Positions 4,204-57,027 of a stretch of DNA of 64,000 nucleotides are shown piece after piece (positions within the stretch are counted from its first letter, which is position 1; the number at the start of each line of letters is the position of its first letter). The DNA comes from Bispira polyomma (taxonomy: Eukaryota), in NCBI GenBank assembly GCA_965649765.1, contig OZ287748.1, forward strand, positions 8,246,001-8,310,000, read 5' to 3'. A model generated the notes under the pieces. The model saw only the letters and a program-made list of their open reading frames with translations. It ran no database searches and had not been told where the DNA came from. The position numbers and the translations under genes are program-made.

Positions 4204-4989
4204 ATGTATTAATACAGGGCTTATATAATTTATTATGTAATTTAGTGAGTTTGAAGTTTCTGGCCCTTTATTTCTTAAATTCTGCAAGATGTATTTTAGG
4301 ACTTGATAATAAATACAGACACAAAAGTATATGTTTGTTTACAGTCTTTCTTCCCTAATTTTACTTCATCAAAGATCTTACGTGTGGAGAAAATATATCA
4401 ATAGACTAAAAAGGTTACTTTCAATTATTATTCCCTTTCACAAATGTTCTTGATAATGCTACATGTGTTCCAATTTAACATCTTATGCACAGTGAAATGT
4501 TCATCTTGTAACTATATACGATTGAATATATTTGTGTATAATTTAGCAAAGCAGGCAAGAATAACTCTAACGCTTTTATATGGAAGAAGAAACCCAGTTT
4601 ATAAAAAACCTAGAATAGAATTCCATATCTCCCTATGTGGTTTATGTGTCTGTACAGACAGAAAGAGATCTGATTTCACACATATAACCTAACCATAACA
4701 ATATGTAACAATTGTAGTTTTTATTTAGACTGCTTAAAAATAGGAAATTTTTTATTTATAACAATGAATGTTTTGTCTTCAATGAAACACTTGATGAAAT
4801 ACTTTGCGTACCTTATTTATTACAAAAATCTAATAAATATAAAGTGTGATGTGTACAGTATCTTTTTTCATTACTTTTCCTCACTGAAATGCTACATGTA
4901 ATTGTTAAACCCATAGAAATCTGTATGATATGTATTCAATTTACATGTAATTCAATTTACTCATTTCTTTTTCCGTTAATGCGGTAATC

Positions 4990-6868
4990 GAAGTGTCACC
5001 GGCCGTTTCGACAGCAGGTGATTCAAATCTGCGGCCCCTAAAAGGTTTGCCGTTTTGACACCCAGCCCCAGTGATTACTTCGCGTGGTTATTATGACACC
5101 AATAATAATTTTAATAAAATCATTATCTCTTGCTTAATTTAACGAATAAGGTATCATATTAAAGTGTACAACACAAAAAATTTAAATACTGCATAATTGT
5201 ATCCACCGGAAAACTCCAGTGGATACTATTGATTAGTCATCATTATGCCGCTGCCGTGTTAGTGTGGGTAGAGATATTACCGTTACCGCTCTCCTGAGAA
5301 AACTTTTACACCTAGGCTCTTCAAATTTACTGAAAATGTTCTTTATTACAAAAGCTTGCCTGGGAGTAATTTTGGCCTTATTTTGACAAACAAGATTGCC
5401 GCCACGGGCGTTTCTTTTAAAATAATCAGGCTTTTAACTGTGTCTGTTTCTTAGCTGCAGAAGGTTGGATCTCTTTACGGGTGATATGTTTAACAGATAT
5501 ATATGTCCTTTATAAGCATGCAGACATTTAACCTTGAATCTCCTCCTCATCGACAGAGTGCCAAAGTACCCCAAGTGATCGATTTTGGCCAAACTTTTCC
5601 TAGTGCCTATATCTCGCTTAATATTGGTCCTAGAGGTTTGTGATCTAAAACAAACCTATAGGGAATCATGGGCTGGGAATCTTTTCATGTGGTCTGATTT
5701 GACCTTGGGTCCCTCGTTCAAGGTCAAATGCGGATGGCCAAACTTAAAAGTGCCTATATCTCGCTTAATATTGGTCCTAGAGGTTTGGGATCTGAAACCA
5801 ACCTATTGGAAATCATAAGCAGCGAATCTTTTGATGTGCTCAGAATTGACCTTGGCCCTCTCCTTCAAGGTCAAACAGGGATGGCCAAACCTAAAAGTGC
5901 CTATATCTAACTTATTTTTGGTCACACAGGTTTTGGATGTGGGCTGGGAATCTTTTAATGTGGTCCGATTTGACCTTGGGCCCCTCGTTCAAGGTCAAAT
6001 GCCGATGGCCAAACTTAAAAGTGCCTATATCTCGCTTATTATTGGTCCTACAGGTTTGGAATATGAAACCAACCTGTAGGAAATCAAGGCCAGGGAATCT
6101 TTGGATGTGGTTCGATTTGACCTTTGGCCACTCGTTCAAGGTCAGTCTTGGTCAAACTTAAAAGTGCCTATATCTCGCTTATTATTGGTCATACAGGTTT
6201 GGGATGTGAAACCAACCTATAGTAAATCATGGGCTGCTAATCTTTTGCTGTGGTCAGATTTCATCTTGGATCCCTTGTGCAAGGTCAAATGGGTAGGCCA
6301 AACTTTAAAATGCCTATCTCACACTTATTGATCCCATATGTTTGCAATGTGAAACCCACTTGTGCGATTTGAGGCTTTAGCATAAATGCCTTATAGGAAA
6401 TCTTAGGCTTCTAGCTTGGGTGCTAGCTAGGGTGCTTGCTACCTAAAGTGCTTGCTGCCTAGGGTGCTTTGTCTTTCTGGTAGATATAAATATGCATCAG
6501 TTCTCCGATGCGCTAGGTCTAGTTACAGCTGGTTTGCCAAAACAAATACACAGTAAATTGTAATTAAAATGAATTTATAAATTTAAACATTCCAGCAGGT
6601 TATTGACATAAGGTTAACAGCGATTTACTTAATACACCAGCTATTTTGTAATATTTAAATCTCTGTGTTGTAAACTTTAAAATGATACCTTATTTGTTAA
6701 AAATTAAGCAAGAATGATGATTTTTTAACTAAATCTCAAACATTTATTCCTGTTGGTGTCAAAATGGCCACGCAAACTATACACCAATACAAATATATAA
6801 GGGTGTAAAAACACCCTCCCCTAGCCAATTAGAAATGGCAAGGGTGTTGAAACGGCCCTCAACAGAAG
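4990..6868. mobile_element. Long-TIR MITE interrupted by a Helentron-like insertion
   Basis: 5111-5175 is the approximate reverse complement of 6662-6725. The termini GGCCGTTTCGACA and TGTTGAAACGGCC are inverted. Confidence 0.7.
5196..6524. mobile_element. Helentron-associated non-autonomous element (HINE/DINE-like) with an internal ~147-bp satellite array
   Basis: Subterminal hairpin GTATCCACCGGA-AAAC-TCCAGTGGATAC (5199-5226). About 5.5 tandem units with TGACCTT/AAGGTCA motifs (5587-6360). Short terminal hairpin followed by CTAGTT at 6524. Confidence 0.7.
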
Positions 6869-11994: not shown

Positions 11995-12328
11995 TGAAAT
12001 GAAAAAAAAATGAAATAGTACATTTGTTATAGCGCACTTATAGAACACAGCGTCCTTTCAAATGCGCTTCCTCATGGGCAGCCACTATGGGTGCTTGAGG
12101 ATGACCATTTATCAACGTCCCCAAGGATGTTTAATCTGCCACTGGAGATATTACTCAGTGACAGAGGACCACCATTTTAAGTGGTCATCCGAGCCACTAG
12201 GCAAACTTCTGTTCACATCTTGCCTGAGGATGTTATCCCATAACTAAAACTAGCGGCTGGTACCGGGACTTGAACCGGGACCTTCTGATCATCAGACCAA
12301 CACCCTAACCACTAGACCATGGGGGATC
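11995..12328 (-). mobile_element. tRNA-derived SINE, near full length (family A)
   Basis: On -, A-box TGGTCTAGTGG and B-box GGTTCAAGTCC. Colinear with the copies at 22751-23090 and 30354-30580. Confidence 0.85.
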
Positions 12329-13959
12329 ACATTTACATATAAAGCCATACATATGAATTGCTTAAGTTTCCATCAGCCAAAAAACGCGTCTTCTTTGTAC
12401 TTGGTTGACTACTGCTATCCTGCACATTTTGTAGGTATACTGTTTGTGGTTATAATTCGGCCGCCTGTCGTAAATTAGCCATCATACAATAAAGATGTCT
12501 TATCTTCAAATTAATGTAATTGATTGGCCTAACAATACTGTACTTTCTTGAATATAGTATTGTAATTGTTTTACTTAAATCCTATGGTCCATTTTGTACC
12601 TAGATTGTTGAAAATTACCATTTAAAATGTGACCGCCGAGTTACAACTGGCGGCCGAAATATTACCAGAGGCAGTATAGGTGTGCAATATGGGCATGCCC
12701 AAAATGATGTCCTGTTTTGTTTATTTTTTCTTGATGAATGTCAATGGATTGCTTGACTATTTGTATGTACAATAAATGTTTCCAATAGTATATGCCATTG
12801 CATACCGACCAATTTACTGCCAAGTTACAAATTAATTGTTTAAAAAATGTTAGTATATTGTCCATATTGCACAGGATAGCAGTAAAACATGAATGAGGTA
12901 CTATATTCACACAATCTGATCAGCGCCTGGATTGATTAAAATGTCTTTTGTGCTTGAGTCTGAATTGAGCTGGAGATTTTTGTAGGAGAATATGACCACA
13001 GATAAATTAAGGTTATTAGGTGGTCTCTCCTTCAGGACTGGTATTCACAGAGAATCTGATTCTTGAAATTTTTTGTCGGAAGCAATTTGATTGGCTGAAA
13101 GTACTTTTGCAAAGAATCTGATTGGCTAAAACTAAGAAAATGCTAAGAATTGCATTTTTTAAGAATGTTTGTTAATACAGCCCATGTCTGTGTCTAGACT
13201 TTCTCTTTTCTGAACCTTTTCTCATTTTCCTGAGCTGTTTTGACTATTAGCAATCAACTGAATTGATTAAAGAGTGGTTTTCATCCATGCGGCATGTGGT
13301 ATACAGTATTCAATGAATCAAAATCATCAAAATAGGAGTGGTTTCTGCATTACTAAACCACATATTTACCATATGTACCGGTAACATGCACACAACAAAA
13401 CAGTTCTTATGTATTTCTAGGAAAGATATGATAGCCGCATACCATATGTCGGATGTCATATGCCGCATGTATGGAAACTGTCGTTTAATTCCAAGAGTTC
13501 ATTCTTGACGTTTCTAATCCTGCTAATGGGTACTATACTATCCCCCCACCCACACCCTGGCGAAAACACAACACAATGCATCCCACTCAACACTCTGCTA
13601 TTTCCTGTGGTAGTAATATGCACAGCTCTTGGACACAGCATTTAAACACCCACACTGACATTGTTTTTGGCCAACACAATGTCTGACTTGCATTAATTTT
13701 GCACTAAAAACCTTAGCAATGCATAATACAAGTAAGGTAGTAACAAAAACCCAGGGGTAACAGATGCCGAACCATGTGGAGAATTTACACAGGTTTTATA
13801 TTGGGTGTTTGAACACAAAAAAAAAAGGTTCAAAGGAAGGACAAGTTTGGGGCTAATTCTAGAATTCACTGGACAAAGGGCACGGCTATATTGACATTAG
13901 TTTTACCTACTGTCACAGAATTGGGGGTTATACTTAAGGATTAGCATTCTGTATTCATA

Positions 13960-20065: not shown

Positions 20066-21358
20066 TCATATAATCGATGGCCTAACCACCCTACCTAATA
20101 ACCAGATAGCCCCAGTTCTGTCATCCTGGATGACGTACACAAAAGGATGATCAGCTTTGAAGAGTTTGATATCCTTGGGATCCGTTGGCATACTGGAAGG
20201 CACACATAGATGAGCGATATTCGAGGCAGAAGCGTGGCAACTCTCTGATTCTTCAAATTCCAACTGAATATGTTGGTAGACTTGTGACACTTTCAGCTTG
20301 TCGGCTGCACTGAGCACTGAGAAATCAGCCCCTTTGGCATTGAAGATGTCTTTAATCCCAACTTGCTGGAGCTTATCCATAACTGGGCAAGACGTTTCAT
20401 AGGCAAACCTTGGCAGGTAGACATCAACAGTTTCGAGTTCCATTTCTTTTGCAGCTGCTTCTAGAATAGATCGTGTGAGATTTTTCTCCAGCTTAAACAA
20501 ACCATCGTTTTTCTTTGGGAGAAGAACCAGCATTTTTGTATAGTCATTTGCAAAAGGGATCTCCACTAAATCACAGTCCAGCCTACTGTTGTGTCCATAG
20601 AGGAACTTGCATTGCTGATACATCATTTGCACTTGTATGACCTCCTTCATCTGCAGGTAAAATGGCATATGGGTAGTCTTTCTCGACTCAAAGGCATGTT
20701 TCCAGCGTACCTTAATGTACATAACACAGAGAAGAAATAACTTGGTATCCCTGTCCACAATGCCCATGGGTGGGACTACTTCCTGTAGCAAACCGTGAGT
20801 GGCTTTCGTCGCCCAGTCGTTGATTTCTGCTCGGGCCAGGTCAAATCGCCGGACCAGGTCCACGTTCTTGAGTGTTGTCAGGTGGTACTGGTTACAAATC
20901 TCCTCGTAGTCGTGAGTCATGCTACACTCCACCGGGGCAAAGAGCCTGACCGCCATCTCCACCGTACAACCTTTAGGCGAGGCTGAACGGAAGGCATCCC
21001 AGTGCATGGCAGCAAGTCCTACCAGTAGTTCGTGGTCCATCAACTCGGACATCTGTAATACCTTGAGCAGTTCATCTCTGGTCTTGCCCTGGACACCGAC
21101 GCACAGAAGGCCTAGTCCTAGAGACAAGCCCAAAGAGCCGACCAGCTGGTTCCCAGGCTTCTTACCATCCTTCGCGAATTCCTGGTACAACATGATGGAA
21201 AACTTATTGTGAGCACGGTTCAGGTAGATGAGGTTGGAGCGTGTGGTGCGGAGAGGTGTACTGCAGGAGGTGTCCTCAGTGGCTGTGCAGGGGTTGTCCT
21301 CCTCACAACCTCCCCCTGCCCCTCCTCCAGGGCACTCCTTAGATGTAATGCTACCCAT
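20066..21358 (-). CDS. Serpin-family protein, 430 aa, single coding exon, probably intracellular and atypical (possibly non-inhibitory)
   Basis: Serpin motifs ARAEINDWATKATHGLL, VQMMYQ, VEIPF, VYLPRF, ADFS and the signature FKADHPFVYVI...LLGRVVRP. ATG in strong context (AGGATGG) with an upstream in-frame TAG at 21400-21398. No hydrophobic signal peptide. Confidence 0.95.
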   Translation of the reverse strand: MGSITSKECPGGGAGGGCEEDNPCTATEDTSCSTPLRTTRSNLIYLNRAHNKFSIMLYQEFAKDGKKPGNQLVGSLGLSLGLGLLCVGVQGKTRDELLKVLQMSELMDHELLVGLAAMHWDAFRSASPKGCTVEMAVRLFAPVECSMTHDYEEICNQYHLTTLKNVDLVRRFDLARAEINDWATKATHGLLQEVVPPMGIVDRDTKLFLLCVMYIKVRWKHAFESRKTTHMPFYLQMKEVIQVQMMYQQCKFLYGHNSRLDCDLVEIPFANDYTKMLVLLPKKNDGLFKLEKNLTRSILEAAAKEMELETVDVYLPRFAYETSCPVMDKLQQVGIKDIFNAKGADFSVLSAADKLKVSQVYQHIQLEFEESESCHASASNIAHLCVPSSMPTDPKDIKLFKADHPFVYVIQDDRTGAIWLLGRVVRPSII

Positions 21359-21403
21359 CCTGTTCTGTGGTGGAAGACTCTGTGAGGAGGCCTCTTCCTA
21401 GCC

Positions 21404-22750: not shown

Positions 22751-23090
22751 ATCCCCTCGTAGTCTAGTGGTTAGGGTGTTGGTCTGATGATCAGAAGGTC
22801 CCCGGTTCTATTCCCTGTACCGATCGCTAGTTTTATTTAGTGGGATAACATCCTTGGACAAGATGTAAACACAAGTTTGCCTAGCGGCTCAGATGACCAC
22901 TTAAAATGGCAGTCCTCTGTCACCGAGTTCTATCTCTAGTGGCAGATTAAAGATCATTGGGGATGATGATAAATGGTCAAGCACAAACTGGCGTCCATAG
23001 TAGCTGCCCATTTGGAAGTGCATTTGACAGGATACTGGGTTCTGTAAGTGCATTATAACAAATATCCTATTTCATTTATTCATTCATTTC
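22751..23090 (+). mobile_element. tRNA-derived SINE (family A), inserted inside a CAGT...ACTG MITE
   Basis: A-box TAGTCTAGTGG, B-box GGTTCTATTCC, central GATGACCACTTAAAATGG...TTAAAGATC segment (reminiscent of Deu/Nin-type cores, from memory), and a (TTCA)-like tail. Confidence 0.85.
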
Positions 23091-28535: not shown

Positions 28536-30353
28536 TCAGTAGAGTAAGTTTTACTGTATGTATTCTTGTTTTGTACAATCAATTCCAACCATCAAGCTAG
28601 GATTCAAAATATTAAAAAATAGTTAATTTTTGTATACAGTTGAACCACTTTAAGTCAAGCCTGAAGGAACCAGTAGAAATATACCTCTACTTAAAGCAAG
28701 ATTTCCACTTAATAGGGCAGATTTTGAAAGAGTAAATGATGTTCTATGTAAAGGGGTTTGATTGTTGTTTATGCATATGATAAGACACTCACATGTATTA
28801 TATGAGATTTTAAAATATGACAAAATGATATCCCTGTTTTATCCCTGTACTACCACCCACTTGCTAAGTTGGTGAGGTCATATATCTGGTAACACTTCCA
28901 CAGGACAACTCAACTGCAAATACCTTGTCAATTTAATGTCACAGGTTAACTATTATTAATATATTTCTTGGAGACTAGGTAATATTTTGATCTCATAAAT
29001 ATTTTTACAGTTACAAAATGATGACAGCACTGCGCATGTCTGCTATAAATTCTGGGAACTGGTTGCTGCCTATTAGCTTCAGTCTGTACAAAAAATTACT
29101 TGAATCTTTTTGATATTCTTGCATTTCTGAACATTCCAATGTTGAAGTTTGAAGACATTAGTAAATTTAAAAAACCAATTTTTTTCTTTTATTCTTAAAG
29201 ACATCTGTGAGCTGTTTTCATAAGAATTAACTATAAAATATATACTGGTAAGTACTGTACGTTAAAAAGACAAACATTTAGATTAACTGCAATAGAAATT
29301 GACCAATGTTTGCATGTATGCAAAATAAGGCACGGGTGGAGGGGGGATGCTTTACCCACAATGCATCACACACACCTAATGACCCCTCAACTGTAAAAAG
29401 GTCTGTTTTGAATAAAGATGGCTTTCTTGGCCAATTTTCTTCAATAGATATTTGAGGTTAACTTTGCTTTAGCTGAACTTTGGCCTAATTTTGTGAAACA
29501 AATAGCTGCAAAAGTTACAGCTCATTTCGAGTTAACTTTAAATTTTTTTCTACTACAACACAGTCCTTCTAGGAGGAGGCCCGATTCTGGGAAAAAAACC
29601 CAAAATGGCTGCCTCACCTACATTTTGACCAAACTTGGCTTATTTTAAATCTACACTTTCACTCATATTCTTACGCATAATTAATGAGGTGACGGTTTAT
29701 TAATGCTAACACGTACTTACTTTTGGTGAAATTTTGATTCAACGCATACACCACAAACTAACAGTAGAAGTAAAAACCATTTTGTTCTTAAAACATAATA
29801 CAGTAGAACCTCCATTATCTGACCCCTCTATTATCCGAACCCTCTATTATCCGAATATTTGATTTTACGAACTCATTTTCACTCTTCAAAACTTATTTTT
29901 TTTTGCATTGTTTCATATTAAAATGACACTTCTTATTTTACAGACCTTCTATTATGTGAACAAATTCCCACTCTCCCAAGATGTCCGTCAAATAGAGGTT
30001 CTAATGCAATAACATTTGGGTAGCGTGTAGATTTAATAAATTATAGCATTCACTATATATTTCAGGCTTAATAAAATAAAGAGAACAAAATCACCTCTCC
30101 ACGCAATGTGGCCTCAGGACCCTTTGTTTTCATCAAGAAAGTTGATAGAAGTGTAGAAATGTGCTGTGGGATGGAATGATCATGAGGGTGCATTATAATG
30201 AGAAAAAACAGCCAAGGTCAAACATAGGACACACTGTTTTCCTTATTAGTTTTTCTCTAAAAAAACTGTATTTTTTGTTATTATTTAGTTATTTACCGGT
30301 ATTATAGTGATACAATAAACATGTAAATTACAATAATAATAGAGTAAATATAA

Positions 30354-30580
30354 GATCCCATGACCTGATGGTTGGGGAGTTGGTCTGATGATTAGAAGGT
30401 CTTGGGTTCTATTTCTGGTACCGGCTGCTAGTTCCATTAGTGGGATAACATCCTTGGGCAAGATTTGCACACACTTTTGCGTAGTGGCTCGGATGACCAC
30501 TTAAAATGGTGGTCCTCTGTCACTCGTTCCTATCCCCCAGTATCAGGCTAAAGATCCTTGGGGACGTTGATAAATGGTCA
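30354..30580 (+). mobile_element. SINE family A, 3'-truncated copy
   Basis: Colinear with 22751-22980. Another partial copy at ~58470-58650 and a head fragment at ~24315-24372 (-). Confidence 0.8.
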
Positions 30581-32787: not shown

Positions 32788-35700
32788 TTTTTTTTTTTTT
32801 TTTTTATTTCCCATATCTATATTTTACAATATTTTACAATATTTAGTCATAATGGAAACAATTAACATAAAAATTTACATTCAAACACAATATGTTGAAT
32901 ATAAAAGTCAACTTAACGTTGATAATATTAGTCACATTAAACATTTACAGAACCTTTTACAATTTAGTTCTTTCTTTTATAATGTCACACACAATTTACA
33001 AAAATTGTTTCATTTTATAACAGTAATTATTACTCTTTACTATATATCTATGTCATGTACCCCAATGGAAACACTGAAAAATCCATCATAAATTTTATTT
33101 GGATAACACACATTATTGTTGAAACACTGGAAGCCATCGTTGCCATAGTTTCATAAATTTTTCTTCTGTTTGGATAGTTTTAGATATGAAAAATTCATCT
33201 GTATATGTTTGACAAAGTTTATATTTCAAGGCTAGTAGATTTAATTTGCTCATAGATTTAATCGACTCGAATATATATTTTTTGGTAACTATAATTAGCG
33301 TATTTATTGGAATATAGTTTTGATCTTGTAAATGATAACCGAGAATAATAATCAAATCTGTAAATTTTATTTTAAAATTGTTTTTGCCTAAAATAAATTT
33401 TTCTATTAAAACCTAAAAATATTTAACCTCTTCACATTGGGTAAACATATGCAGAATGGTGTCTGGCATGCTTTCACATCTAGGACAAATAAGAGTACTA
33501 GATAATCCCACTTTATGTAAATATTGTTCTGTACCCAAAATTCTATACAAAATTTTCATCTGAAACCATATTAGGTTATAGTTTTGGAGCGTTTTGAAAC
33601 ATGTTTTAAACGTCAAATTCCATTGTCCTTTGTTTATATATATATTTAAATCGGTGCTCCACCTCTGTTTAATAATGTGGTCATTTTCTGTCTTGGATAT
33701 TAAATGTTTATAAAAAACACTAGCCCCTTATTTGACTTGAATAATATCTTAATATGATTTGGAATAAAAGGTCTTACTAAAATGTCGTTTTCTGGTTCCT
33801 TGTGATCTTTTAGATTTTTTTAACATTTAATTTAACTCAAAGATAACAAAGAAAGTTTATGTTATTCAGATTATATAGGTTTTGTAACTGATCACAGGTC
33901 ATGAATGTACCGGTCTCATCTAAAATATCACTTATTGTTGCTATACCTTTGGAATGCCAATTCGCGAAGAATAATGGTTCATTTGATATTTTATTGTTGT
34001 ACCATATTGGAGTTGTTAGCAAATTGTCACTAGAATCAATCACTTGGCTATTTAAAACCTTATACCATGCATCAAAAGCATTTAGCCAGAATTTATTTGA
34101 GGTCATTTTTTTCATTGTTTTGATATATTCTTGAAGCTTGAAATAGTTTCTTCCACGGAGTATTGTTTTGCTTGAGGAGTCTACGAAGCCAAGTTGTTTT
34201 GAGGGAACTTATAAACAACACCACATTTATCATTTTTAATCCACCTAATCCATTTTCCAGCATTAGAGTCTTTCTGTTGATTTTGTCAGGTTTATTTGAC
34301 CAAATAAATTTAAACAATAAATCATTTAACTGCTTAATCCATGTTTCATTTGGATTCGGTAAGGTCAAGAACAGATGATTTAATTTTGATATAAGAAATG
34401 TCTTTATAACAGTGACCTTGCCTAAAGGGGTCAGATATCTCCGACTCCATATATTGATAAGTTCCGTAATTTCCAATAATTTTGGAGTAAAATTAAGTTC
34501 TGGCATTTTATCGAGATCAACAGAAAAAGTCAATCCTAAGAGATCAAATTGAGTACATCCCCATTGCAGCCCTTTAGCAATTAGTTTATCTGTACAATGT
34601 TTCTTCTTCCCTATCCAAATTAATTTTGTTTTATCTTTGTTGACCTTCAGGCCAGAAATGGAACCAAAAATCTCCAATATGTTAAGTGCAGCTTGTAGAG
34701 AGGAATATGAACCATCTAAGAATAAAGTTGTATCATCAGCATATTGTGTAATTTTGAATTCCAATCCAGTTTATGCCCTTTATATTACCACATGCTGAAA
34801 TAAGAATAGATTGTATTTGGCCTATTATTATGTAGAGATAAGGAGAAATTGGATCTCCTTGTCTACATCCACATCCTATGTCTAAGAATTCCGAAGTGAA
34901 CCCACATTGTATAATTGTTGCTGTTATATCCTTGTTAAATAACTTTATCCATTGTATCAATGTGTCACCAAAGCCCAGGTATGTCAAAGTTTTATAGATA
35001 AAGTTCCATGAAATAGAATCGAACGCTTTTTTGAAGTCTATAAGCATCAAAAGTCCAGGTATGTTATCTGTGTTTGCAAAATTCATTATGTCATACACTA
35101 GTCTGGTACTCTTGCCAATGTATCGGCCGGATACAAATCCGTTCTGCGAGTCGCTTATTAAGATGCTTAAATAGGGTTTGATTCTATTTGCAATTGAAGT
35201 GGATGCGATCTTATACAGAACAGAAAGCATTGATAATGGTCGCCAATTTTTAATCAATTCTCTTGGTTTGCCTTTCTTGGGAAGGCATGTTATGATACAT
35301 TGCCTTAATGATACAGAGAGAGTACCCTTTTCAAAACTTTGATTCAATGCTTTTAGAATCCAGATATTGAGATCTTTCCAAAAGACTTTAAAAAACTCTG
35401 CCGGAAACCCATCAATTCCTAGTGTTTTGTTGTTTTTCATTTGCCTTAATGCCAAACTTATTTCTTCATATGTCAGAGCTCCCTCAAGACTGTCAGATTG
35501 TTCAGCATTGAGTTTATTAACTTGATATCCACTAAGTAGTTCGTTCAGGTCAACATCATCAAGGTGTTGATCAATTGATTTAAATAACTCTGAATAAAAA
35601 TTCTTTAATTCTGATAAGATACTTTTTTGATCTACCAAACTGTTCCGTCATTTTTAATAATTTTTTTAACAGTTTTTTCGGTGTAATTATGATGTTCTAA

Positions 35701-36903
35701 TGAGCAAAAGTATTTAGTTGGTCTTTCTCCCTCACCTAACCATTGCACGCGTGAGCGAATTTGGTGACCCTTTAGAATTTGTGCTCTTATATTTTCTAAT
35801 TCTAATTTTTTATTGTCGAGAAGGTCGAAAGTTTGAGGTAAGTTGTTCTGTTCAAGTATATCGATTTCAGACGTCAATTTTTTCTCAGTTTCCATGGTTT
35901 TCTTTTTGTTATAACTAGCGTATTTAATGGTTTCATCTCGTACTCGGAGTAAAATTATTTCTATAAAAATATCGTAATCTATACTTAAGTGAATAAGTAC
36001 ATCGGAAATAGTATTTAAGTTATCCATATTATAGACAGGAACTGCATATTTACGTTTCTCATCCATGATACAGTCTTTGACTAGAGTTAAATAAGTCAAG
36101 TCTTTCAAGAGGGCTGTGTTTAGTTTCCAAATTCCTCTACCTCTTTTAAAGTTGTTTATTAACAGTGACAAAAATAATATAGAGTGATCTGATTTGTAGC
36201 CAGGCCTTATTTCAACGCTAGAAACTATATCTGTCAAGGAGGAGGTGATTAGAAAGTAATCAAGTCTGGCTTGTTTAATGGGATTCCGTCTACGCCAAGT
36301 ATAACATGTACGGTTTGGATTAAAGTATCTGTATGTGTCAACCAGGTCAAATTCTTTAATGAGCTCAAGCAAGCAATTTCTGGATCTTGGATTATTCAAA
36401 TTTACATAGTTGTAACAATCTAGGTCAGGATTCAATGTGATGTTAAAATCGCCACACCAAATTAAATAGTCCTGTTCATTTTGACGTAAGAATTTTTTGA
36501 TATTTATAAAGAAACTTTAATCATCAGTGTTAGGACCATAGATATTTATGAGACGAGTCTTTATATTACAAATTGTTAGGTCAAGTAGTAGCATATTACC
36601 ATCTAGATCACATTCGGAATGGGATACTTTAAACTCGAAAGTGTTACTAAGCAAAATTGCTACACCTCTAGCATTTGTTCTAAATCCACTTAGATAAACC
36701 TCTCCATTCCAAATATTTTTCAAACTAGACAACTCTGACTGAGTAAGATGAGTGTCTTGGAGACAAATAATGTTTGCTTTAGTATTTTGAAGATAATTAA
36801 TGACATCAAATCTTTTATCCTTGTTTCGTAATCCTTGACAATTTAACGAAACTATCGAAACAGTTTCACCTATTTTTAAACTCATTTTATTTTTAAATCA
36901 CAA
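32788..36903 (-). mobile_element. L1/Tx1-clade non-LTR retrotransposon, ORF2 only (APE endonuclease, RT, CCHC), multiply frameshifted
   Basis: ORF pieces from 36885 to 33113: NCQGLR, CLQDTH, ARLDYF, SDHS (APE); KNWRPLS, DFKKAFD, GCRQGDPISP, YADD (RT); CPRC...H...C. AATAAA and poly(A) at 32786-32808. Candidate TSD GGAAGAATT at 32779-32787 and 36904-36912. Confidence 0.93.
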
Positions 36904-40855: not shown

Positions 40856-43800
40856 TCTTTTTTTTTTTATTATTATTATTTCAAGCTTTAAATTTCTTGA
40901 TCCAAAATAATTTATCTTCTTTTCTTTTTTCCTTTCCGTACATAATTTTCCTAGTGTCTAAAATAATTTATTAATTAGATTCCATTGCTTATGGAATATT
41001 TCATACCTTTGTTCTAGTCTGGCAACACATTCCTGTTCTAAATAAATTTTATGTAAGTATTTACTGAAATTTTGTACGCTTAATTGGCTTGTAGACTTTG
41101 ACGTCCAAAATATGTAAACTTTTGCGGTAATATAAACTATGTTTACTACAATGTTTGAACTTTGTGAAAACATCCCAAAAATGATATATTTTCCATTTAT
41201 TGGGAAATCAATTTTAAGATTGACCTTTATTAAAGTTTCAATATCTCCCCAAAATTTTTTAACCTTTTCACATTGGACAAAAAGATGCAGAACTGTTTCT
41301 ATGCCTGTTCCACAAAAGCTGCAAGTTCCATCTGTTGCAATTTTTACTTTGCACAGATGACCCTTAGTTCCTAAAATTCTATACAAAGTGCGATATTGTG
41401 ACCATATGAGGTAGTTGTCTTTAACTGTTTTAAAGCAGATTTTATATATATTTTTCCAGTCTGCACTAGTTAAAGTTATTCCAAGATTGTCCTCCCAGTA
41501 TGAGTAGAATAACTCATCTGGACTCTTTGCATCTATCAGAATTTTGTAGAAATCCTTACTGCCACTGTTTGACTTGTACAGAAGTCTAAAATTATTGGGA
41601 AAGTTGGGTTTTACGTTTTCTGAATGCAGTAGCTTCAGTTTTTCTAGATAACCTTGTATACATGTTATCACTCTATGATATTCTAAGAAGTTAGTTTTAA
41701 TGCCATATACACTCTGTATTATTTCCTGTGAAATAAAGTCGCCATTATTATACATCAGATCACTAGGGGTTAAAATGCCCCTTTTATACCAATGTGGTAA
41801 ATACAGTTCGGCCTTTGAAATATTCGGGTTATACCAAAGAGGATTCGCTAAAGCTGCGGTGATGTCCTTAATCTTTATATTTGCTTGTACATTACTCCAT
41901 GCACTTAAGACCTCTGACCAAAATTTGTTCTTGCATTTCTTTGAAATATTTATTGCATAACCAGATCCTAACATTACAAGACTAGGAGGCGATTGAATAT
42001 AGGATTCTGCTGCCTTTACCCAAGGTGCATCCATATCTGAGTTCGCTCTACGTATCCAAGTTGATTTTAGAGCACTTATATAACTATTAATATCAATCAT
42101 GTTAAGTCCACCTTTGAGATAACTCTTTTTTAGTGTTAACCTTTTAATTTTATCTGGTTTTTTATCCCATATAAAGTTAAAGAACATTTTCTCAAGTTTC
42201 TTCACAAATTCTTTTCCAGGGGATGGAATTGACAAAAAAATTTAATTTTGACAAAGCTAAAGATTTTATAACAGTAATCTTACCAATAGGGGTAAGATAT
42301 CTTCGGTTCCCAACATAAAGGAGTTTCCGAATGTTTTCGAGAGTAGGATTGTAATTGAGTTCTATCATTGCGTGAAGATTTACAGAAAAACATATACCTA
42401 AGAGATTGAAAGTTCCTGATTCACAATCAAAATTCTGGTTAATATTGAGTTTTTCCTCTGAATGAGTTTTGCTTCCAATCCATACAAGTTTAGTTTTGTC
42501 AATATTGATTTTTAACCCTGAGATAGATCCAAATACTTCTAGAGTACTAAGAGCAGCGTCTAATGAGTGCTTTGATCCATTCAGTATCAAAGTGGTATCG
42601 TCTGCGAACTGAGTAAGTTTGTGCTCAAAACCATTGATCTTAATCCCTTTAATGTTTTTATTATTTGTTATCAAAAGATACAAAATTTGGGCACAAAGTA
42701 TAAATAAATAGACTGATATCGGGTCACCTTGTCTGCAACCCCGCTCAATATCAAAAAAACTAGACAGAGTTCCACACTGGAGAACGGCTGCTTTTACATT
42801 AGTGTTCAAGACTGTTATCCGTTTTTTGAAATTTTCTTTAAATCCAAACAAATCCAAAACTGAATTTAGAAATTTCCAAGATACCGAATCAAAGGCCTTT
42901 TCAAAATCTATAAGCATCAAAAGGCCTGGAATGTTTTCTTTTCCTGTGAAGTGCATAATGTCATAGATTAAACGAATATTTTCACCAATGAAGCGATTAC
43001 TTATGAAGCCTGATTGAGTTGGTGAAATAATTTTCCCTAGGACACGTTTAAGCCTTGCAGATAAAGCAGCAGACGCAATCTTATAGAATACTGATAAAAG
43101 TGAGATAGGCCTCCAGTTTTTTAGAAATTGTCTTGGTTTATCTCCTTTTGGGAGACAAGTAATAACACATTGCCTTAAGGATATAGAAAATTGTCCAGTT
43201 TTGTATCCCTCATTTAATGCTCGCAAAACATAAAATTTTAACTTATTCCAAAAAACTTTCAGAAATTCGGCTGGAAAACCATCAATGCCTGGGGACTTGT
43301 GGTTTTTCATTAGTTTCAATGCCATACTTATTTCCTCTAGTGTTAAGAGACCTTCCAGTAATAGTGCATCGGCCTTGGGCAACTTTTTAAAATTGATAGA
43401 GGATTTTAAACTGTTAAATTGAACTTCCGAGTCTTTACCTTGCCTGTATTTGAAAAGATTCTGATAGAACTGTTTTACTTCTTCTAAAATTTCAAATTGG
43501 TCAGTGACAGTTTGCCCATTTGCCTTTACAATTTTCTTTATAGTTTTTTCAGTGTAGAGTTGCTTTTCTAATGAGCAAAAAAATTTAGACGGCTTTTCGC
43601 TTTCTGAGATCCAATGTGCCCTTCCTCTAATCATATGGCCTTTCAATTTTTCATTTCGAACACTTTCGAGTTCTTTCTTTTTTTCATTCAAAAGGTCAGG
43701 GTGAATGGTATCATTTTCATTTTCTAATGATTCAATTTCCTTAATCAGCATTTTTTCTTTTTTGCAGGCCTTTTTTTTGAATTCTGAGGAAAATTTAATG

Positions 43801-44897
43801 GTTTCTCCTCTTATTTGGAGGAGTAGTACTTCTAAAAATTGATTATCTGAAATAGTGAAGTGAATTTCAGAATCTGATAGTTGGTTTACAGTACAAGGGT
43901 TATACACAGGTAATGCATAGTATAACTTTTCTCTATCTATCAAATTATTAATTTTGATTAAATATTCCTTATCTTTCAAAAGAGAGCAGTTAAATTTCCA
44001 TAAACCACGACCTTTTTCAAATTTGCAAATTGTTATTTCAAGAGTACAAATGGAGTGGTCTGTTCTGTAGCCAGGTTTTATCATACAACTACTTATCAAA
44101 TCGGTCAGGTTATCAGATACAACAAAATAATCCAGACGTGCTTTTCTGATAGGATTTTTTCTATGCCATGTATATCTTCTAAGATCCTTATTTATAAGGC
44201 GAAATGCATCTATCAGACCAAGGCTATTCATGGTTTCTATAAGTACATTCCTTGCTCTAGGGTTATTTAGGTGTTTATAGTTATAACAATCCTTTTTAGG
44301 GTCCAATATAAGGTTAAAGTCCCCACATATTATACAATAATCATGTTTAGAAACCTCAATGTCCTGTTGTAGGTCATTGAAAAAAAGAGGGCAATCTGAA
44401 TTTGGAGCATAAATATTTATCAAACGAATATTGTGCTCCTTCAATGTCAACAGTACAGAGATATAATTACCATGACTGTCCTTTTTTATGGATGATATTT
44501 CATATTCAAGATTCTGACCAATCATAATAGCTACTCCCCTTGAATTTGTCTTACTTCCATTTAAGAAACATTCGCCATGCCATATATTTTTTATATACTT
44601 TTCGTCCTCTGTAAGCCAATGGGTATCTTGAAGACAGTAAATTTCATTATTCATATCACCAAGATATTTTAAGACATCTGTACGTTTTTTTAAGTCTCTA
44701 AGACCTTGGCAGTTAACTGAAAGAATTTTAATGTTTGTCGCCATTATACAATTTTATAAAATATGTTGAAACTGTCATTTTTTAGGAATATGAAGCCAGA
44801 CTTTGAAACCATTATTAAAGGCGATGGTCTAGCCATCTGTGTGCTCCAACAACGTGATAAAATTTCTACTGTGATCTTAAAAATATAATTCCAAGAA
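40611..44897 (-). mobile_element. L1/Tx1-clade non-LTR retrotransposon, ORF2 only, nearly intact (one frameshift near 42235)
   Basis: 850-aa and 425-aa overlapping ORFs with APE, RT (GCRQGDP, FADD) and CSFC...H...C. Poly(A) tail present. 15-bp TSD GTATTGTACATTTTT at 40596-40610 and 44898-44912. Confidence 0.96.
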
Positions 44898-49649: not shown

Positions 49650-49872
49650 GGTAGAATATTTAGTAGTTGGAGTGTTTCATCACTGAGATTACTTTTGGGA
49701 AAAGGAGTCCCTGCTCCAGGTGTAATATAGGTGGCTGATTCTACACCTTAGGTGCCAATGGCTGAAATCAAGGTTTCTTGTGATACACTAGTAGACATGG
49801 TATGTTCAGAGGTAATAAAGCATATAAGGGTTTATGTCTTGTGTATGAACAAGTAGACTAAATAATATATGT

Positions 49873-49940
49873 AGCCTGATATATATTTCTTTTATCAATA
49901 TATATTTCGATCTATTCTGTAGAAGATCTCATCAGAGGCT
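49873..49940 (-). ncRNA. Type I hammerhead ribozyme (mirror copy)
   Basis: Reverse complement of 52359-52426. Predicted cleavage after 49878 on -. Confidence 0.9.
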
Positions 49941-52358
49941 GAAATGTTAAAACAACTTATTCTCCTAAGGTATGTTTTATAGCCCCGGTTGCTCCGGTGG
50001 TTGCCCCTGTTGCCCCTGTCATTTAGGGGCTATTTATAGACAGCAAAGTGTTATAGTTGTCCATTTTGTTGGGATATATGGCTATAGGGTGTGTATAAGA
50101 AATATGATGATTTCTTCTGACCTTAGATTAGGGAGTTACCATTTATATCAACTTGCATTTCACTCAAACCCATTGCCCCCTACCGATTTAGGGTGGTTGG
50201 GTGTGATTTATATGGTATACTGTAAAACATGGATAGTTTTAAGAATAAGGCATGATCATATTTGATGAATGGAACTTTATTTATATTAAAAGTTGTGGTA
50301 TCCATATGATCACTTAAATAGTGGTATCATAGTATTTACTGCATCAGATAATTTTAATAACTCAAATTGTAGTTTATTAAAATTAGATAAAAATAATTAA
50401 TGTAATTTTTATACAAAAAATGCCAAACAAAAATGTATATATACAAATAAAAAGGATTACTTATTGAAGAGTATAGATGGGTAGCTTAGGGTGAAAGCTC
50501 TCCATATAGGTCCCTCATTTTCATGATGAAGGAGTTGTCCTTTTTTACCAGTGGGTCTTGCTTCCTCCAACTGGTGCTTAGTGGTTTGTCATGGGTCCCA
50601 TCAATGATCACAGTGTTGGTGGTCAGTGCTGGTTTGGTAGGGGAGTATGCCTCATTCACCAGGCTAGACCAGTAGTTGTGCTGGTATGTGCATAGGTAGG
50701 TGTGGTTCTGATCTGTTGATGTTCCATAGGGAAGTATTCTTTGGATAGTTTGAGTAGGTGGTTCTTAGTGTGAACTTTATTAGGGGTCAGTTTGGGCGAA
50801 TTTTGAATGATGTGTTTTGTTTTCATTAGTACTTCTTTTTTGGCTGTTTGTTTACAATTGGTAGGCCAAGCTATTCTTGGCTTGCTCTGGCCTATATTTG
50901 GATCAGAGAACAGATTTATTTCAGGTATAGGCTTTGATAGAGCCTTGGGTGTTATTTTGTTGTTGTTTTTGGCATTTCGGATTTTTTGTGGTGGAAGCCA
51001 GTTCATTGTTGGCTGGGGTGGTTGCTTTTTTTACCATTGGTGGTGGTAATACTACTTGTGGTGTGGTGGGTTGTATCAGACTGTTGTTGTTAGTAATGTC
51101 CACTGTAACAGCTGATAAGTCAACAAGTTGGTTGATCAAAAGTCCTCAGGATTTTACTTTTGATCAACCAACTTGTTGACTTATCAGCTGTTACAGTGGA
51201 CATTACTAACAACAACAATCTGATACAACCCACCACACCACAAGTAGTATTACCACCACCAATGGTAAAAAAAGCAACCACCCCAGCCAACAATGAACTG
51301 GCTTCCACCACAAAAAATCCGAAATGCCAAAAACAACAACAAAATAACACCCAAGGCTCTATCAAAGCCTATACCTGAAATAAATCTGTTCTCTGATCCA
51401 AATATAGGCCAGAGCAAGCCAAGAATAGCTTGGCCTACCAATTGTAAACAAACAGCCAAAAAAGAAGTACTAATGAAAACAAAACACATCATTCAAAATT
51501 CGCCCAAACTGACCCCTAATAAAGTTCACACTAAGAACCACCTACTCAAACTATCCAAAGAATACTTCCCTATGGAACATCAACAGATCAGAACCACACC
51601 TACCTATGCACATACCAGCACAACTACTGGTCTAGCCTGGTGAATGAGGCATACTCCCCTACCAAACCAGCACTGACCACCAACACTGTGATCATTGATG
51701 GGACCCATGACAAACCACTAAGCACCAGTTGGAGGAAGCAAGACCTACTGGTAAAAAAGGACAACTCCTTCATCATGAAAATGAGGGACCTATATGGAGA
51801 GCTTTCACCCTAAGCTACCCATCTATACTCTTCAATAAGTAATCCTTTTTATTTGTATATATACATTTTTGTTTGGCATTTTTTGTATAAAAATTACATT
51901 AATTATTTTTATCTAATTTTAATAAACTACAATTTGAGTTATTAAAATTATCTGATGCAGTAAATACTATGATACCACTATTTAAGTGATCATATGGATA
52001 CCACAACTTTTAATATAAATAAAGTTCCATTCATCAAATATGATCATGCCTTATTCTTAAAACTATCCATGTTTTACAGTATACCATATAAATCACACCC
52101 AACCACCCTAAATCGGTAGGGGGCAATGGGTTTGAGTGAAATGCAAGTTGATATAAATGGTAACTCCCTAATCTAAGGTCAGAAGAAATCATCATATTTC
52201 TTATACACACCCTATAGCCATATATCCCAACAAAATGGACAACTATAACACTTTGCTGTCTATAAATAGCCCCTAAATGACAGGGGCAACAGGGGCAACC
52301 ACCGGAGCAACCGGGGCTATAAAACATACCTTAGGAGAATAAGTTGTTTTAACATTTC

Positions 52359-52426
52359 AGCCTCTGATGAGATCTTCTACAGAATAGATCGAAATATATA
52401 TTGATAAAAGAAATATATATCAGGCT
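52359..52426 (+). ncRNA. Type I hammerhead ribozyme
   Basis: AGCCT (stem I) - CTGATGA - GATCT/AGATC (stem II, 10-nt loop) - GAAA - TATATATT/AATATATA (stem III) - TC - AGGCT (stem I). All core nucleotides are present. AUC triplet with predicted cleavage after 52421. Confidence 0.9.
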
Positions 52427-52577
52427 ACATATATTATTTAGTCTACTTGTTCATACACAAGACATAAACCCTTATATGCTTATTGAAGTAGACAGTATGC
52501 TAGCGGATCTATATTCCGATGAAATGTTTGATGAACACAGGGAATATTAAGGATTTGTTGAATATGCGAGATCTCAA

Positions 52578-53343
52578 GCCCCCGTCACACAGACCTTTTG
52601 AAGATCTTCCTTGAAAGGTCTTTAAAGGGATTTGTAAGAGTGGTATGCGACCGGTGGCCAACCCCAAAAAGCTCAAAATATGTGTAACTGCTACCAATAA
52701 GTCTTGCAAAGATCCCAGGGAATCGCTAGTGATCGTGGTTTTTCTTTGATTTTAAGGTAGCAGCAGCTTTCTAACTGGTCATGGGCGCTGTGTGACTGGG
52801 GCTTTATGAGACCCAAACGTCAGCAGTACAGCCTGCTTGTTGCAGGTAGTTGCAGAGTAGTTGTTTAGTTCTCACACCAGTGGCATACCAATGGCATATC
52901 GACAAACACTAACAAACACTAACAGTAGATTCTTGTGACACTGATCTGGAATTGATCCACAACCATTATTGGGCAGTCAGTGACTAACTCATCGCTGTCC
53001 ACCAACTTACAACACAAACAATATCTTTTCTTTATGACAGTGCTCGGGGATCAATCCCCAACAAATGGGGTATTACTGGCACAAAGTATAACAAGTCTTC
53101 AATGATCTTTAAAATATTTGACTAAGACGTACAATGGTCTGCAATCTATGTTTAGTCGTGTTACACACTCGCAAGACCTCTGTAAGACCAATCCTTACAA
53201 ATCTGACTGGTTGTCCATAGTCGCCGCCAAATGGTCTTACGATGATTCTGCGACTGGTCGCATAATAATCGGTGACCACATTTCTGTGTGACTGCCACTT
53301 ACGATTTTGGTCAGACCTTCAGGTCTTCGGTCTCATACAGTCT
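52578..53343. mobile_element. Two adjacent MITEs (AGCCCC..TCACAC/GTGTGACTGGGGCT and ATGAGACC/GGTCTCAT termini)
   Basis: Inverted termini at ~52578/52802 and ~52800/53343. Confidence 0.5.
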
Positions 53344-55929
53344 TTGATGTTCTTGATTAATATGAGGATGTAGATGATCTTTAAAAGTTCTTATCTCTGT
53401 GTGACTCGGACTTTTAAAGACAGTAGATTTAGCTGAAGAAATTAATACCATGTTACCACTGCTCTGTACAAAATAGTGTTAAATGGACAACCTTAATTAG
53501 TTTGTTCTTACACTGTGAAACCACTTTGTGCTAGTCCTTGTTCCTTTAGCTTAGGCTTCCATGGCGCCGATTTCGATGTCTGTAGATTGCATATATGTGT
53601 ATCGATTCGATCAAGTTTTTTTTATTAAAGATGTCAAGTTGATTTATGCGTCCATGCAGCTGATAAACAGACACTAAAATCTGGCACAATAATGCTAAAC
53701 TGTTTACATATATATTGACTAATCTGAGTTCCTTTGTCAAGGAATCACTGTCAATTTCAGTATCTTACAATAGAATCATTCTTACAAAAACAATGTAGAT
53801 AACACAGTGTGTTTGTCAAGTAAAACCTTCTTTTTTTATCGCTATTGTGTGGACTTTTCTAAGGAAGCAGTGCTTTAGATTTTCTTGATAGATGTATTTT
53901 TTTTCTCTGTTTCCTCCTTTAGAGATCTATATACGCAGAACAAAATCATTGTTGGCAGCAATAATCTGCTTTTTCAGCTGAAAACAAATGGCGCTATTGT
54001 ATTGAAAACTAACAGGAAATAGACTACACCTCCTCCCCCGACCCCTACATTGTTTTGGCTTGAAAAGACCTGAACACAAGGAAATACCAAGAAACACTTA
54101 AAGAACAAGCAGGGGCAATGCTCTGAATAAAGCACCTTGTTTATTTAAAAGAATACAAAATACAGACAGATACAGGAAACATTAGTATTGTTAATGCCCT
54201 TGCTAACCGGCTCCGGTGCGGTACAATCCGAACAATTACGTTTGATACGATCAGACCATTTCGGATAGTGCTTTCCCACTGGATCCGATACTGGCTATGT
54301 GATAATGTCATATATTAAAATATTTAAAGATAAAAAATAATGTGTATTTTAAGTATTTTAATAATGAAAATCAAAAGCAATTGATTAGTGGAGTGTAGAC
54401 ACCATAATATCAGCAAGTGCACTTGTGTTTAAAAATTCAAATTTTGCTATACATTGATTATTCCTAATTGGGTTAATGGTCAGTATTACTAACTGATTAA
54501 GTTTAGGGACAGACACAATAAAATCTGCAAGTATTTGCAGTTGAAAGTTGCACTCATAGTTGAAAGTGCACTTATGTTTAAAACTTCATATTTTACTAGC
54601 TATATTGTATGTGGGGGTTATGTTGATTGAGTTTGGGTGCTTAACTACTAACTGGGTTTCATGGACCTGACTTGATATTACATTAATTACTAACTGGGTG
54701 TTACTGGCTTAAATATTCTTGATTGGATATTACACTAACTGCTAACTTTGTGTCATGGGCTTGAATATTCCTAGATATATCTTATACTAATAGATTATAA
54801 TAGGTTGATTGTCTGTATCATTTGATCTGCGTATTTCCACTACATTTCTGAGATTTTTACAACATAATTTCACAAAATAGAATTGTGTTCCATGATAGTG
54901 TTTTGCAAACTATATTTAAGCATCACAACGTCTGGAAAATATATTATCTATACTTAATGTGGTAATACTAAATAGAATTTCTGATTTTCAAATTCAACTT
55001 TAATGATTCTAAGGTACATATATTTCTGACTAGAAAAATCATATCTAAAATCTGACATTTTTTTTAAATTTAATGTTAAAAGCTCTGAAAACATGTGTGT
55101 GTGGGTTGCCCTTATTTAATGTAGTCGCACGAAAATACAGCGAACCAAAACAATATGTGTTCTCATACACATTTTAATGCAAATTGAAGTTACTTAGATG
55201 TGAAAGCAATATGAAACCACTCGCCTCGATGGTGCAGCCCTCAGTAGTTCTCGGTTTGCACTAGTCGGCAAACAACTTAAGGACACTTAATTTTTATTAT
55301 TTACATAAATAATGGATCCACAGCGAAATAAATTTTTTTTAAGTTTGACTAGAATGTCTTTTTAAATATTTTAGCACTTTTCTAAAAAGTTAATGGCCAT
55401 ATTGGATGCAGCTTCAGTAAGACTTTCCCTGGGAACCAAAATAGCAATAATTCTAAAGAATTACAAAAGTACCAAATATTTACCACATAGTACATCTTAA
55501 ACAACCATTGTTCAAAAGTGGTTCATTTGTCAAAATGCAAATTCAGCTGGCTGACTGGTTTAGACCAGTTCTTTCCCCCAAAAATTGAAACAGCAGTGCA
55601 TTGTGGGTATTATTGGGTTATCTCACCCTGTGCCACAGAAGTAACATCAGTCTGATCAAATTACTCCAAGGCTTTCTAACTTGATTTGGTCGCTGTTTAA
55701 AACTTGCATGTAGAGCTTTAAAAATTGCCACTTTAATTGTGAGTCTCACTCGTACGAACTAAAATCAAATTTTAGCACAGCTAGACTAGTTTTTGTCTTC
55801 AATTTTAGCAAAGGCTGCAATTATTTTTGGCATAAAAAACATTTAAATATTTTTTTTTTGTCTTTATTAAAGCTAAAGATGAATTTTCCTTGTAAATAAA
55901 CCCAAAATAGAATTTTCTTCAAATAAATA

Positions 55930-56912: not shown

Positions 56913-57027
56913 ACAGGGCCTGTATTCACGAAGGGACTTAGCCAAGTCTTAGGCTTAAATGTAGCACGAAAGTATACAGATTTAAGCCTAAGACTTGGCT
57001 AAGTCCCTTCGTGAATACGGGCCCTGT
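56913..57027. mobile_element. Tiny hairpin MITE (PIF/Harbinger-like GGCCCGTATTC termini in CWG context)
   Basis: 48-bp arms (56913-56960 and 56980-57027) with one mismatch and a 19-nt spacer. Similar termini at ~19096-19339, 36950-37175, 48268-48524 and 11530. Confidence 0.85.

Follow-up and report, generated by a model that had tools for sequence, protein, structure and literature searches.

Within the 64,000-nt stretch of Bispira polyomma DNA analyzed here (hereafter, the window), a descriptor search found exactly two hammerhead ribozyme motifs, with CUGAUGA cores at 52364 on the forward strand and at 49935 on the reverse strand. The two 68-nt copies are identical and sit at the outer ends of a 2.66-kb palindrome. 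Their parts are as follows:

52359..52426, forward strand: type I hammerhead, from the descriptor search and folding
52359-63/52422-26, forward strand: hammerhead helix I, 5 bp
52364-70, forward strand: hammerhead core CUGAUGA
52371-75/52386-90, forward strand: hammerhead helix II, 5 bp with a 10-nt loop
52391-94, forward strand: hammerhead GAAA
52394-52402/52412-20, forward strand: hammerhead helix III, 8 bp plus A15.1-U16.1 (9 bp in all), 9-nt loop
52421, forward strand: C17, the cleavage-site position, in an AUC triplet
49873..49940, reverse strand: mirror hammerhead in the inverted arm, C17 at 49878, AUC triplet

Both copies have the CUGANGA, GAAA, and UH elements and three helices of a type I hammerhead, with the ends of the motif in helix I. 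A preliminary description of this DNA had claimed the core, three stems, an AUC triplet, and two identical copies, all of which were confirmed by the descriptor search and by a shuffle control, as 200 dinucleotide-preserving shuffles of the window (both strands) yielded no match with stems of at least 5, 5, and 5 bp and a total of six loose matches (stems of 4, 4, and 1 bp). Its 8-bp stem III with a 9-nt loop was likewise recovered, with the A15.1-U16.1 pair in addition. The minimum free energy structure of 52350-52435 is the hammerhead fold, the energy of which is unremarkable (z -1.23; 13 of 200 shuffles equal or better). The motif had also been called canonical, which is accurate for the core and the three stems, while the extended part of helix I and its loop contact are not evident by eye. 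Canonical metazoan type I hammerheads have a 6-bp plus extended helix I, a 4-bp helix II, a loop 1-loop 2 contact, and a short helix III. Here, helix I has 5 bp and no extension in the predicted folds, and helix III has 9 bp, which sets the motif apart from the Schistosoma-like and retrozyme hammerheads. The Rfam hammerhead models, which had been proposed as a check, lent no support at gathering thresholds, where the window had no matches. At E values up to 10, the sole hammerhead family listed was RAGATH-1-hammerhead (RF03152), which matched both copies at 25.9 bits versus a gathering score of 56.3 (E 0.22). This family shares the type I form and the long stem III, but its upstream hairpin is unmatched and the score is sub-gathering, so that we speak of resemblance and not of membership. 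The miRNA-family matches in the same permissive search involve the palindrome center only and were discarded.

The palindrome consists of two arms of 1326 nt each (49818-51143 and 51156-52481) with 12 nt between them, and the arms differ at two of 1326 positions (51218 and 51746; 99.85% identity). Its components, together with two features of the repeat family to which it belongs, are listed below:

51141..52481, forward strand: direct copy of a 5'-truncated young multicopy element, from contig depth, contigs with 0-2 differences, and an upstream loose end
49818..51143, reverse strand: inverted duplicate of 51156-52481, with 2 differences
51141..51158, no strand: turn-around, a 12-nt spacer (51144-51155) within a 3-nt inverted microhomology (51141-43/51156-58)
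52427..52481, forward strand: 55 nt 3' of helix I, present in both arms
52482..52484, forward strand: right junction, beginning with ATT; the left flank read outward begins with T-ATT; an AT-rich, near-blunt site
51336..51742, forward strand: 407-nt stretch deleted in a sub-family, with a joint of 51335 to 51743 in three of three runs (depth 467, 439, and 2165)
51157..51813, forward strand: 3' end of a frameshifted open reading frame (ORF) with 217 or more codons, split into three pieces free of stops

To place the element within its family, contigs from three public runs (X1, X2, and X3; two samples from one study, with one run possibly being the source of the window sequence) were aligned to 51100-53600, and the findings on contig variants, length polymorphism, joints, and loose ends hold among the alignments listed. 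Arm-covering contigs with 0-2 differences had depths of 776-1611 (X1), 578-1400 (X2), and ~4000-5100 (X3), and the contig of the right flank had depths of 10.4, 5.2, and 77.8, respectively. The family probably comprises ~10^2 near-identical copies, depth not being a copy number. Summed depth was greater at the hammerhead and fell to background in the bin 52528-52611, with a modest 3'-ward rise in X1 (1153 to 1611) and X2 (999 to 1400). A depth step at 51743 was rejected as a sign of 5' truncation because most of it is due to the sub-family lacking 51336-51742, which leaves a 3'-ward rise of ~40%. In all three runs, one contig aligns rightward from 51141 and has other sequence before that point (at least 255 letters in X1 and X2). 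Thus, the family runs on upstream, the spacer is part of the element, and the window copy is 5'-truncated. Two frames are stop-free over the 10 visible codons of this upstream continuation; one is hydrophobic and leads into the T/P-rich ORF, and the other ends at 51179. There may therefore be two ORFs. Among the contig variants, a 1-nt deletion at 52386 accounts for about one third of the depth in X1 and X3, and it reduces helix II to 4 bp while sparing the core.

Relatives outside of this animal were also sought. Two pattern scans of viral contigs (11 and 92 loci; L001-L103) gave no blastn match to the arm at E values up to 0.01. Six phage contigs (L003, L005, L006, L007, L009, and L010) do carry apparent type I hammerheads with identical helix II letters and a 5-6-bp helix III, and these were set aside as unrelated to the window element. 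A metagenome locus (L104) and a genome locus (L105) were rejected as chance words in bacterial coding genes.

Both arms carry substitutions at 51505, 51560, and 52011 that are absent from the main family contigs among the variants listed, which indicates that one arm was copied from the other or that both were copied from one template. The fold-back point is presumably the 3-nt microhomology of the turn-around. The two arms terminate at one and the same base of the element, which lies 60 nt 3' of the cleavage site. No flush target-site duplication was found at the two outer junctions, and an 8-mer common to both flanks was rejected as a candidate, as it is not flush and would occur by chance in ~5% of cases. 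As for a 3' tail, both arms stop at one base, and the resolution of the depth bin 52444-52527 would still allow a tail on the right-hand side. An ATG located 6 nt before the element end opens a 24-codon acidic frame (52476-52550, forward strand) that runs into the right flank, which could be either the start of the ORF of the element with a right-hand tail or a chance occurrence. Since the arms are 99.85% identical and no contig among those listed spans the turn-around (one arm only was used as the alignment target), one might suspect that the palindrome is a fold-back chimera created during assembly or library preparation and that the locus has a single hammerhead copy. We consider this very improbable, as the palindrome has unique flanks on both sides, the arms do carry two differences, the inversion ends at the natural 3' end of the family on both sides, and the structure agrees with described insertions of Penelope-like elements (PLEs).

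PLE insertions are 5'-truncated and often have an inverted truncated copy at the 5' end (PMC8557442), while Adineta vaga Penelope copies exhibit head-to-head inversions in which the inverted copy is slightly shorter, an arrangement ascribed to self-priming (PMC3846280). The window locus has both the 5' truncation and the inverted copy at its 5' end, and a palindrome with an antisense hammerhead copy is known to be ordinary for PLEs. Compared with such head-to-head insertions (PMC3846280; PMC8557442, Fig. 2), the window locus similarly has an inverted 5'-truncated copy that is a few bases shorter and an AT-rich target, whereas its arms are 1.3 kb and include the ORF, with no target-site duplication or tail demonstrated.

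The three stop-free pieces of the ORF end comprise 51, 104, and 62 codons, the last of which includes the stop, while the other frames have 3-7 stops per piece. With two free frameshifts permitted, such openness was reached in 3 of 2000 shuffles. The breaks near 51312 and 51625 are the exact sites of length polymorphism in other copies listed. The product is rich in T/K/L/N/P. Neither Pfam nor word-seeded searches of longer proteins yielded a homologue of the ORF end, a tblastn-confirmed scan of viral sequences found no relative of its pieces, and recognition of the pieces in the Atlas was below threshold. A single HMMER hit (P0001, E 2e-4) was dismissed as a repeat protein whose score is summed over eight weak stretches. 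No reverse transcriptase (RT) or GIY-YIG domain was detected in the ~217-codon ORF end. In the canonical endonuclease-bearing (EN+) PLEs (Penelope/Poseidon, Neptune, Nematis, and Hydra), the GIY-YIG ORF end lies just before the pseudo-LTR (pLTR). The ORF end of the window element is not GIY-YIG, which places it apart from these canonical EN+ clades, and it may mark an uncatalogued PLE-like lineage in annelids.

PLEs encode a telomerase-like RT with or without GIY-YIG, may have a 30-40-nt tail, create short or no target-site duplications, and carry a promoter and a 5'-UTR intron in the pLTR. In our preferred reading, which we hold to be probable, the motif is a hammerhead in the 3' pLTR of a young PLE family, the head-to-head insertion was made from uncut RNA, and the hammerhead probably cuts as a monomer. 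PLE membership itself is a presumptive identity, likely but unproven because the defining protein (RT) was not seen in the ORF end. The window element resembles PLEs in several respects: its hammerhead lies 60 nt short of the 3' end, its head-to-head arms end at one base, its flanks read outward begin with ATT and T-ATT, no flush target-site duplication was found, and TATA-like boxes and an acceptor-like AG are present, with the ATT and acceptor matches being short and weak when taken singly. Of these, the hammerhead in the 3' terminal repeat is a feature that PLEs conserve, and opposite-strand pairs of hammerheads also occur in them (PMC4209133). In addition, the intron of Drosophila virilis Penelope ends at the 5' end of helix I (PMC4209133), and in Anolis Poseidon the template is uncleaved RNA, on which reverse transcription begins downstream of the hammerhead, with a preference for ATT at the target (PMC11167929). 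PLEs also form partial tandem master copies (pLTR-ORF-pLTR), and no such copy was present among the contigs listed, which are short.

The hexamer CCCTAA, the reverse complement of the telomere hexamer, is found on the sense strand at 51514, 51808, 52106, 52166, and 52271. EN-deficient telomeric PLEs have reverse-complement telomeric repeats beside the hammerhead and a telomeric location. The window element lacks the hallmarks of these elements (Athena/Terminon and Coprina), since its CCCTAA copies are dispersed and all 5' of the hammerhead, they form no array, and the insertion is internal. A possible reading, although one that we would not favor, is that PLEs mobilize the element as a non-autonomous unit or as one with an accessory ORF (similar to a Terminon, or consisting of a gene captured between pLTRs), the ORF being cargo or an accessory protein and RT/EN being supplied in trans, which would leave the interpretation of the hammerhead unchanged. 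An ORF end without RT or GIY-YIG likeness, a sub-family without 407 nt of the ORF region, and five CCCTAA copies in the arm (7 of 2000 shuffles) would all be in keeping with such a unit, as would the reports that Terminons carry accessory ORFs together with hammerheads (PMC6431247), that A. vaga pLTRs mobilize unrelated sequence (PMC3846280), and that fungal and protist PLEs without an endonuclease have hammerheads with a long helix III (PMC4209133). However, the element is inserted internally between unique flanks, the CCCTAA copies are scattered with none after the hammerhead and the hexamer was picked post hoc, endonuclease-less PLEs lack the inverted organization according to PMC3846280, and the upstream part of the element, where RT could be sought, lies outside of the 5'-truncated copy.

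It would be a good deal less probable, in our view, that the hammerhead belongs to a non-PLE element (retrozyme-like or other) and that the palindrome arose through generic fold-back repair. Such an origin would be compatible with the lack of a detected PLE protein in the ORF end and with the monomer-competent type I hammerheads of invertebrate retrozymes, including those of annelids (PMC7229834, PMC7761336). Yet retrozymes are ORF-less tandem repeats of 170-400 nt (bioRxiv 10.64898/2026.07.22.740005, PMC7229834), whereas the window unit is at least 1.34 kb, includes an ORF end, and is not tandem, and its inversion stops exactly at the 3' end of the element. Accordingly, the short ORF-less tandem units with one hammerhead each that define non-LTR retrozymes are not what is found here. 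The invertebrate non-LTR retrozymes (PMC7229834, PMC7761336) do share with the window element a type I hammerhead, predicted monomer function, and status as an invertebrate repeat, but the window element is not a 170-400-nt tandem ORF-less unit, and no loop 1-loop 2 signature was seen in it. It should be noted that the preliminary description had set this motif against animal hammerheads with a short stem III that cleave as dimers, a contrast that was overstated, as most invertebrate retrozyme type I hammerheads are already monomer-cleaving (PMC7761336).

Among PLE-type hammerheads, the length of helix III is unusual. In Fig. S3 of PMC4209133, the PDF columns of which are partly lost, all 56 metazoan rows give a helix III of up to ~4 bp with a loop of 0-4 nt, and all 26 animal rows in File S2 of PMC8557442 give one of 3-4 bp with a loop of 1-3 nt. 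Thus, the 9-bp helix III of the window motif exceeds those of all 82 animal PLE-type rows in the available tables of the two sources. A large helix III is described only for endonuclease-less fungal and protist PLEs in the available part of PMC4209133, and the surveyed literature contained no animal PLE hammerhead with a comparable helix III; Lunse et al. 2017 and Arkhipova et al. 2017 were outside of that survey and may hold examples. The metazoan PLE pLTR hammerheads (PMC4209133; Hydra clade, PMC8557442) resemble the window motif in many other respects: type I, a short helix I that lacks loop 1, G10.1-C11.1, flanks that are U-rich on the 5' side and AU-rich on the 3' side, a location near the 3' end of a 5'-truncated repeat, a second copy on the opposite strand, and, in D. 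virilis, an acceptor-like AG at helix I. They differ in having a helix III of at most ~4 bp with 0-4-nt loops, unlike the 9 bp and 9-nt non-palindromic loop found here, and the window motif is without the extra base between A9 and G10.1 and follows an ORF end that is not GIY-YIG. The hammerheads of endonuclease-less fungal and protist PLEs (e.g., Serpula lacrymans, PMC4209133) share the large helix III, the lack of a recognizable tertiary contact, and the expected monomer activity, whereas the window element is from an animal host, is an internal, non-telomeric head-to-head insertion, and has no telomeric stretch after the ribozyme.

A diverged copy of the family, visible where a single contig from X1 and another from X3 (two samples) part from the window sequence behind 52401, keeps all nine pairs of helix III even though its loop-closing U-A has become C-G, its 10-nt loop differs, and its triplet is AUA (read by eye). 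From this retention, helix III appears to be a family trait that has probably been selected. The preliminary description had named a lack of stem covariation among genomic copies, together with a lack of cleavage, as grounds for giving up the ribozyme, and one compensatory helix III pair was found; it rests on one contig per run in two of three runs. The compensatory change closes the loop and so points to an intramolecular hairpin. A recent 11-mer duplication was rejected as the origin of helix III, since 9 of the 11 letters follow from the hairpin itself and the helix persists in the diverged copy although the loop there is another. What is new here is the 9-bp helix III with its compensatory change, along with the unrecognized ORF end.

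We also examined by folding whether the motif could act on its own. For the isolated motif, the active fold is the predicted ground state, with pairing probabilities of ~0.87, 0.9, and 0.9 for helices I, II, and III, respectively. A trap helix involving the AUC and the core is minor (probability 0.02-0.08) and 3-4 kcal/mol worse. Helix III alone contributes only -3.8 kcal/mol, as it is AU-only, and its self-complementary (AU)4 tracts could pair between molecules (-10.8 versus -7.6 for two hairpins). The earlier suggestion of monomer cleavage is therefore upheld in part: the predicted isolated fold and the long helix III of the diverged copy speak for it, while the weakness of helix III and its capacity to pair between molecules speak against it. 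Monomer competence is supported on paper by these models. One might instead suppose, and we would grant this some plausibility though not the better case, that the motif kept by the family is a poor or protein-assisted ribozyme, that its long AU helix serves mainly as a surface for dimerization or protein binding, and that the upstream pairing described below is incidental. Beyond the energetics of helix III just given, helix I has 5 bp with no evident tertiary contact, the controls for the upstream block are weak, PLE hammerheads cleave slowly even when a helix III is added (PMC4209133) or need protein (PMC11167929), and in ELVd, AUC was the triplet that performed worst during transcription (PMC1636495). 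Minimal PLE hammerheads provided with an artificial helix III still cleaved poorly (PMC4209133), and one PLE hammerhead cleaved only with protein (PMC11167929). Against this stand the active ground state with its less stable trap helix, the intramolecular hairpin to which the compensatory change points, and a fungal PLE hammerhead with a long helix III, the monomer of which cleaved at a rate of 1.97 per min with 10 mM Mg (PMC4209133).

The preliminary description had further proposed that in a transcript of the whole palindrome, the hammerhead would be sequestered by its antisense copy. This is thermodynamically certain, at -112.7 kcal/mol for the 68-nt duplex, and is a by-product of the insertion of one copy, not a designed switch. 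It had also been proposed that activity would depend on where transcription starts. Such a dependence is indeed predicted, but for a different reason: it is the upstream sequence of the element, and not the antisense arm, that would block helix I when transcribed. The features involved are the following:

52290..52296, forward strand: strand predicted to block the motif by pairing with 52360-52366 (the 5' strand of helix I together with C3-U4-G5)
52261..52323, forward strand: putative promoter region, TATAAA at 52261 and 52318, GGGGC at 52283, 52292, and 52313
52355..52360, forward strand: splice-acceptor-like TTTCAG, the AG of which forms the first two bases of helix I, by analogy with the D. 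virilis Penelope intron

In folding predictions, RNAs that begin at 52300 or farther upstream formed helix I with a probability of 0-0.09, compared with 0.86-0.88 for RNAs that begin at 52320 or farther downstream, and the cost of the active fold was 7-8.5 kcal/mol with the upstream sequence versus 0-1.4 kcal/mol without it. A hairpin at 52422-52443 downstream would compete transiently. By energy, a block as strong was found in 24 of 300 shuffles of 119 nt, 117 of 300 shuffles of 199 nt, and 22 of 300 random window contexts; by pairing probability, it was found in 7 of 200 shuffles of the upstream sequence only and in 29 of 200 shuffles of both flanks. Given these weak controls, a selected lock is hypothetical only. 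A sequence scan found donor-like sites at 52160 and 52178, and hypothetical splicing onto 52361 would give a helix I probability of 0.42-0.78 with the donor-like site at 52178 and 0.02-0.62 with two others. A fourth GGGGC is located at 52120; four copies in the arm were reached in 6 of 2000 shuffles, the motif having been chosen post hoc. The GGGGC copies could be promoter elements. From these models, one could compose a more far-reaching scenario, which we regard as improbable: the element would represent an undescribed animal PLE/Terminon-like lineage with a non-GIY-YIG 3' ORF and a fast, monomeric, fungal-type hammerhead gated by upstream sequence, with a GGGGC lock in the read-through template RNA, release through a start at the second TATA box or through splicing at the helix I AG, and a ribozyme whose trimming is confined to the 5' end of the RNA that is expressed. 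If true, it would account for a PLE having an efficient ribozyme and yet uncut inserted copies.

Returning to our preferred reading of a PLE hammerhead inserted from uncut RNA, both arms keep 60 nt beyond the cleavage site, indicating that the copied RNA was uncut there or re-joined. This is the firmer part of the scheme, whereas we infer the fold-back step, the cleavage, and the dependence of cleavage on the 5' end. Under this scheme, a long read-through RNA, mostly misfolded at the hammerhead, would escape cleavage and serve as the template; reverse transcription would start at 52481, which lies 60 nt past the cut site, with AT-rich DNA as the target; and cDNA synthesis would stop at 51141. 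The new strand would then fold back on the 3-nt microhomology and copy itself, creating the head-to-head palindrome. Short RNAs starting in the terminal repeat would be cut, probably as monomers. Animal PLE hammerheads have been described as slow and as relying on protein or on a second copy as partner, and insertion in vitro did not require them (PMC4209133, PMC11167929). With its self-sufficient predicted fold and uncut inserts, this young animal family would offer a simple, protein-free test of whether and when such a ribozyme is off.

Outside of the arms, a Pfam search of 33 frames (45-64 kb; 72 ORFs listed) gave no convincing match, and thus no host gene was identified around the insertion. 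The window is AT-rich with LINE fragments. Immediately to the right of the palindrome, 52576-53413 is a MITE-like composite in which 52576-52593 pairs with 52788-52804, 53283-53305, and 53396-53413, and which is multicopy, with ~85-90% identity in the aligned contigs. Two frameshifted LINEs are found on the reverse strand (33837-36897 and 40958-44753), both of which encode an RT by Pfam, the second also encoding an AP endonuclease and zf-RVT. SINE-like dispersed repeats with a tRNA-like head by eye are present at 12095-12336, 22754-22986, and 30344-30580, in several copies on both strands. A 48-bp inverted repeat at 56913-57027, 98% perfect with a 19-nt spacer, is probably a small MITE. Finally, an intronless serpin ORF lies at 20066-21397 on the reverse strand; it suggests that the host is an annelid, as its best named relatives are annelid proteins (Paralvinella, Helobdella, and Capitella), with 43-46% identity.
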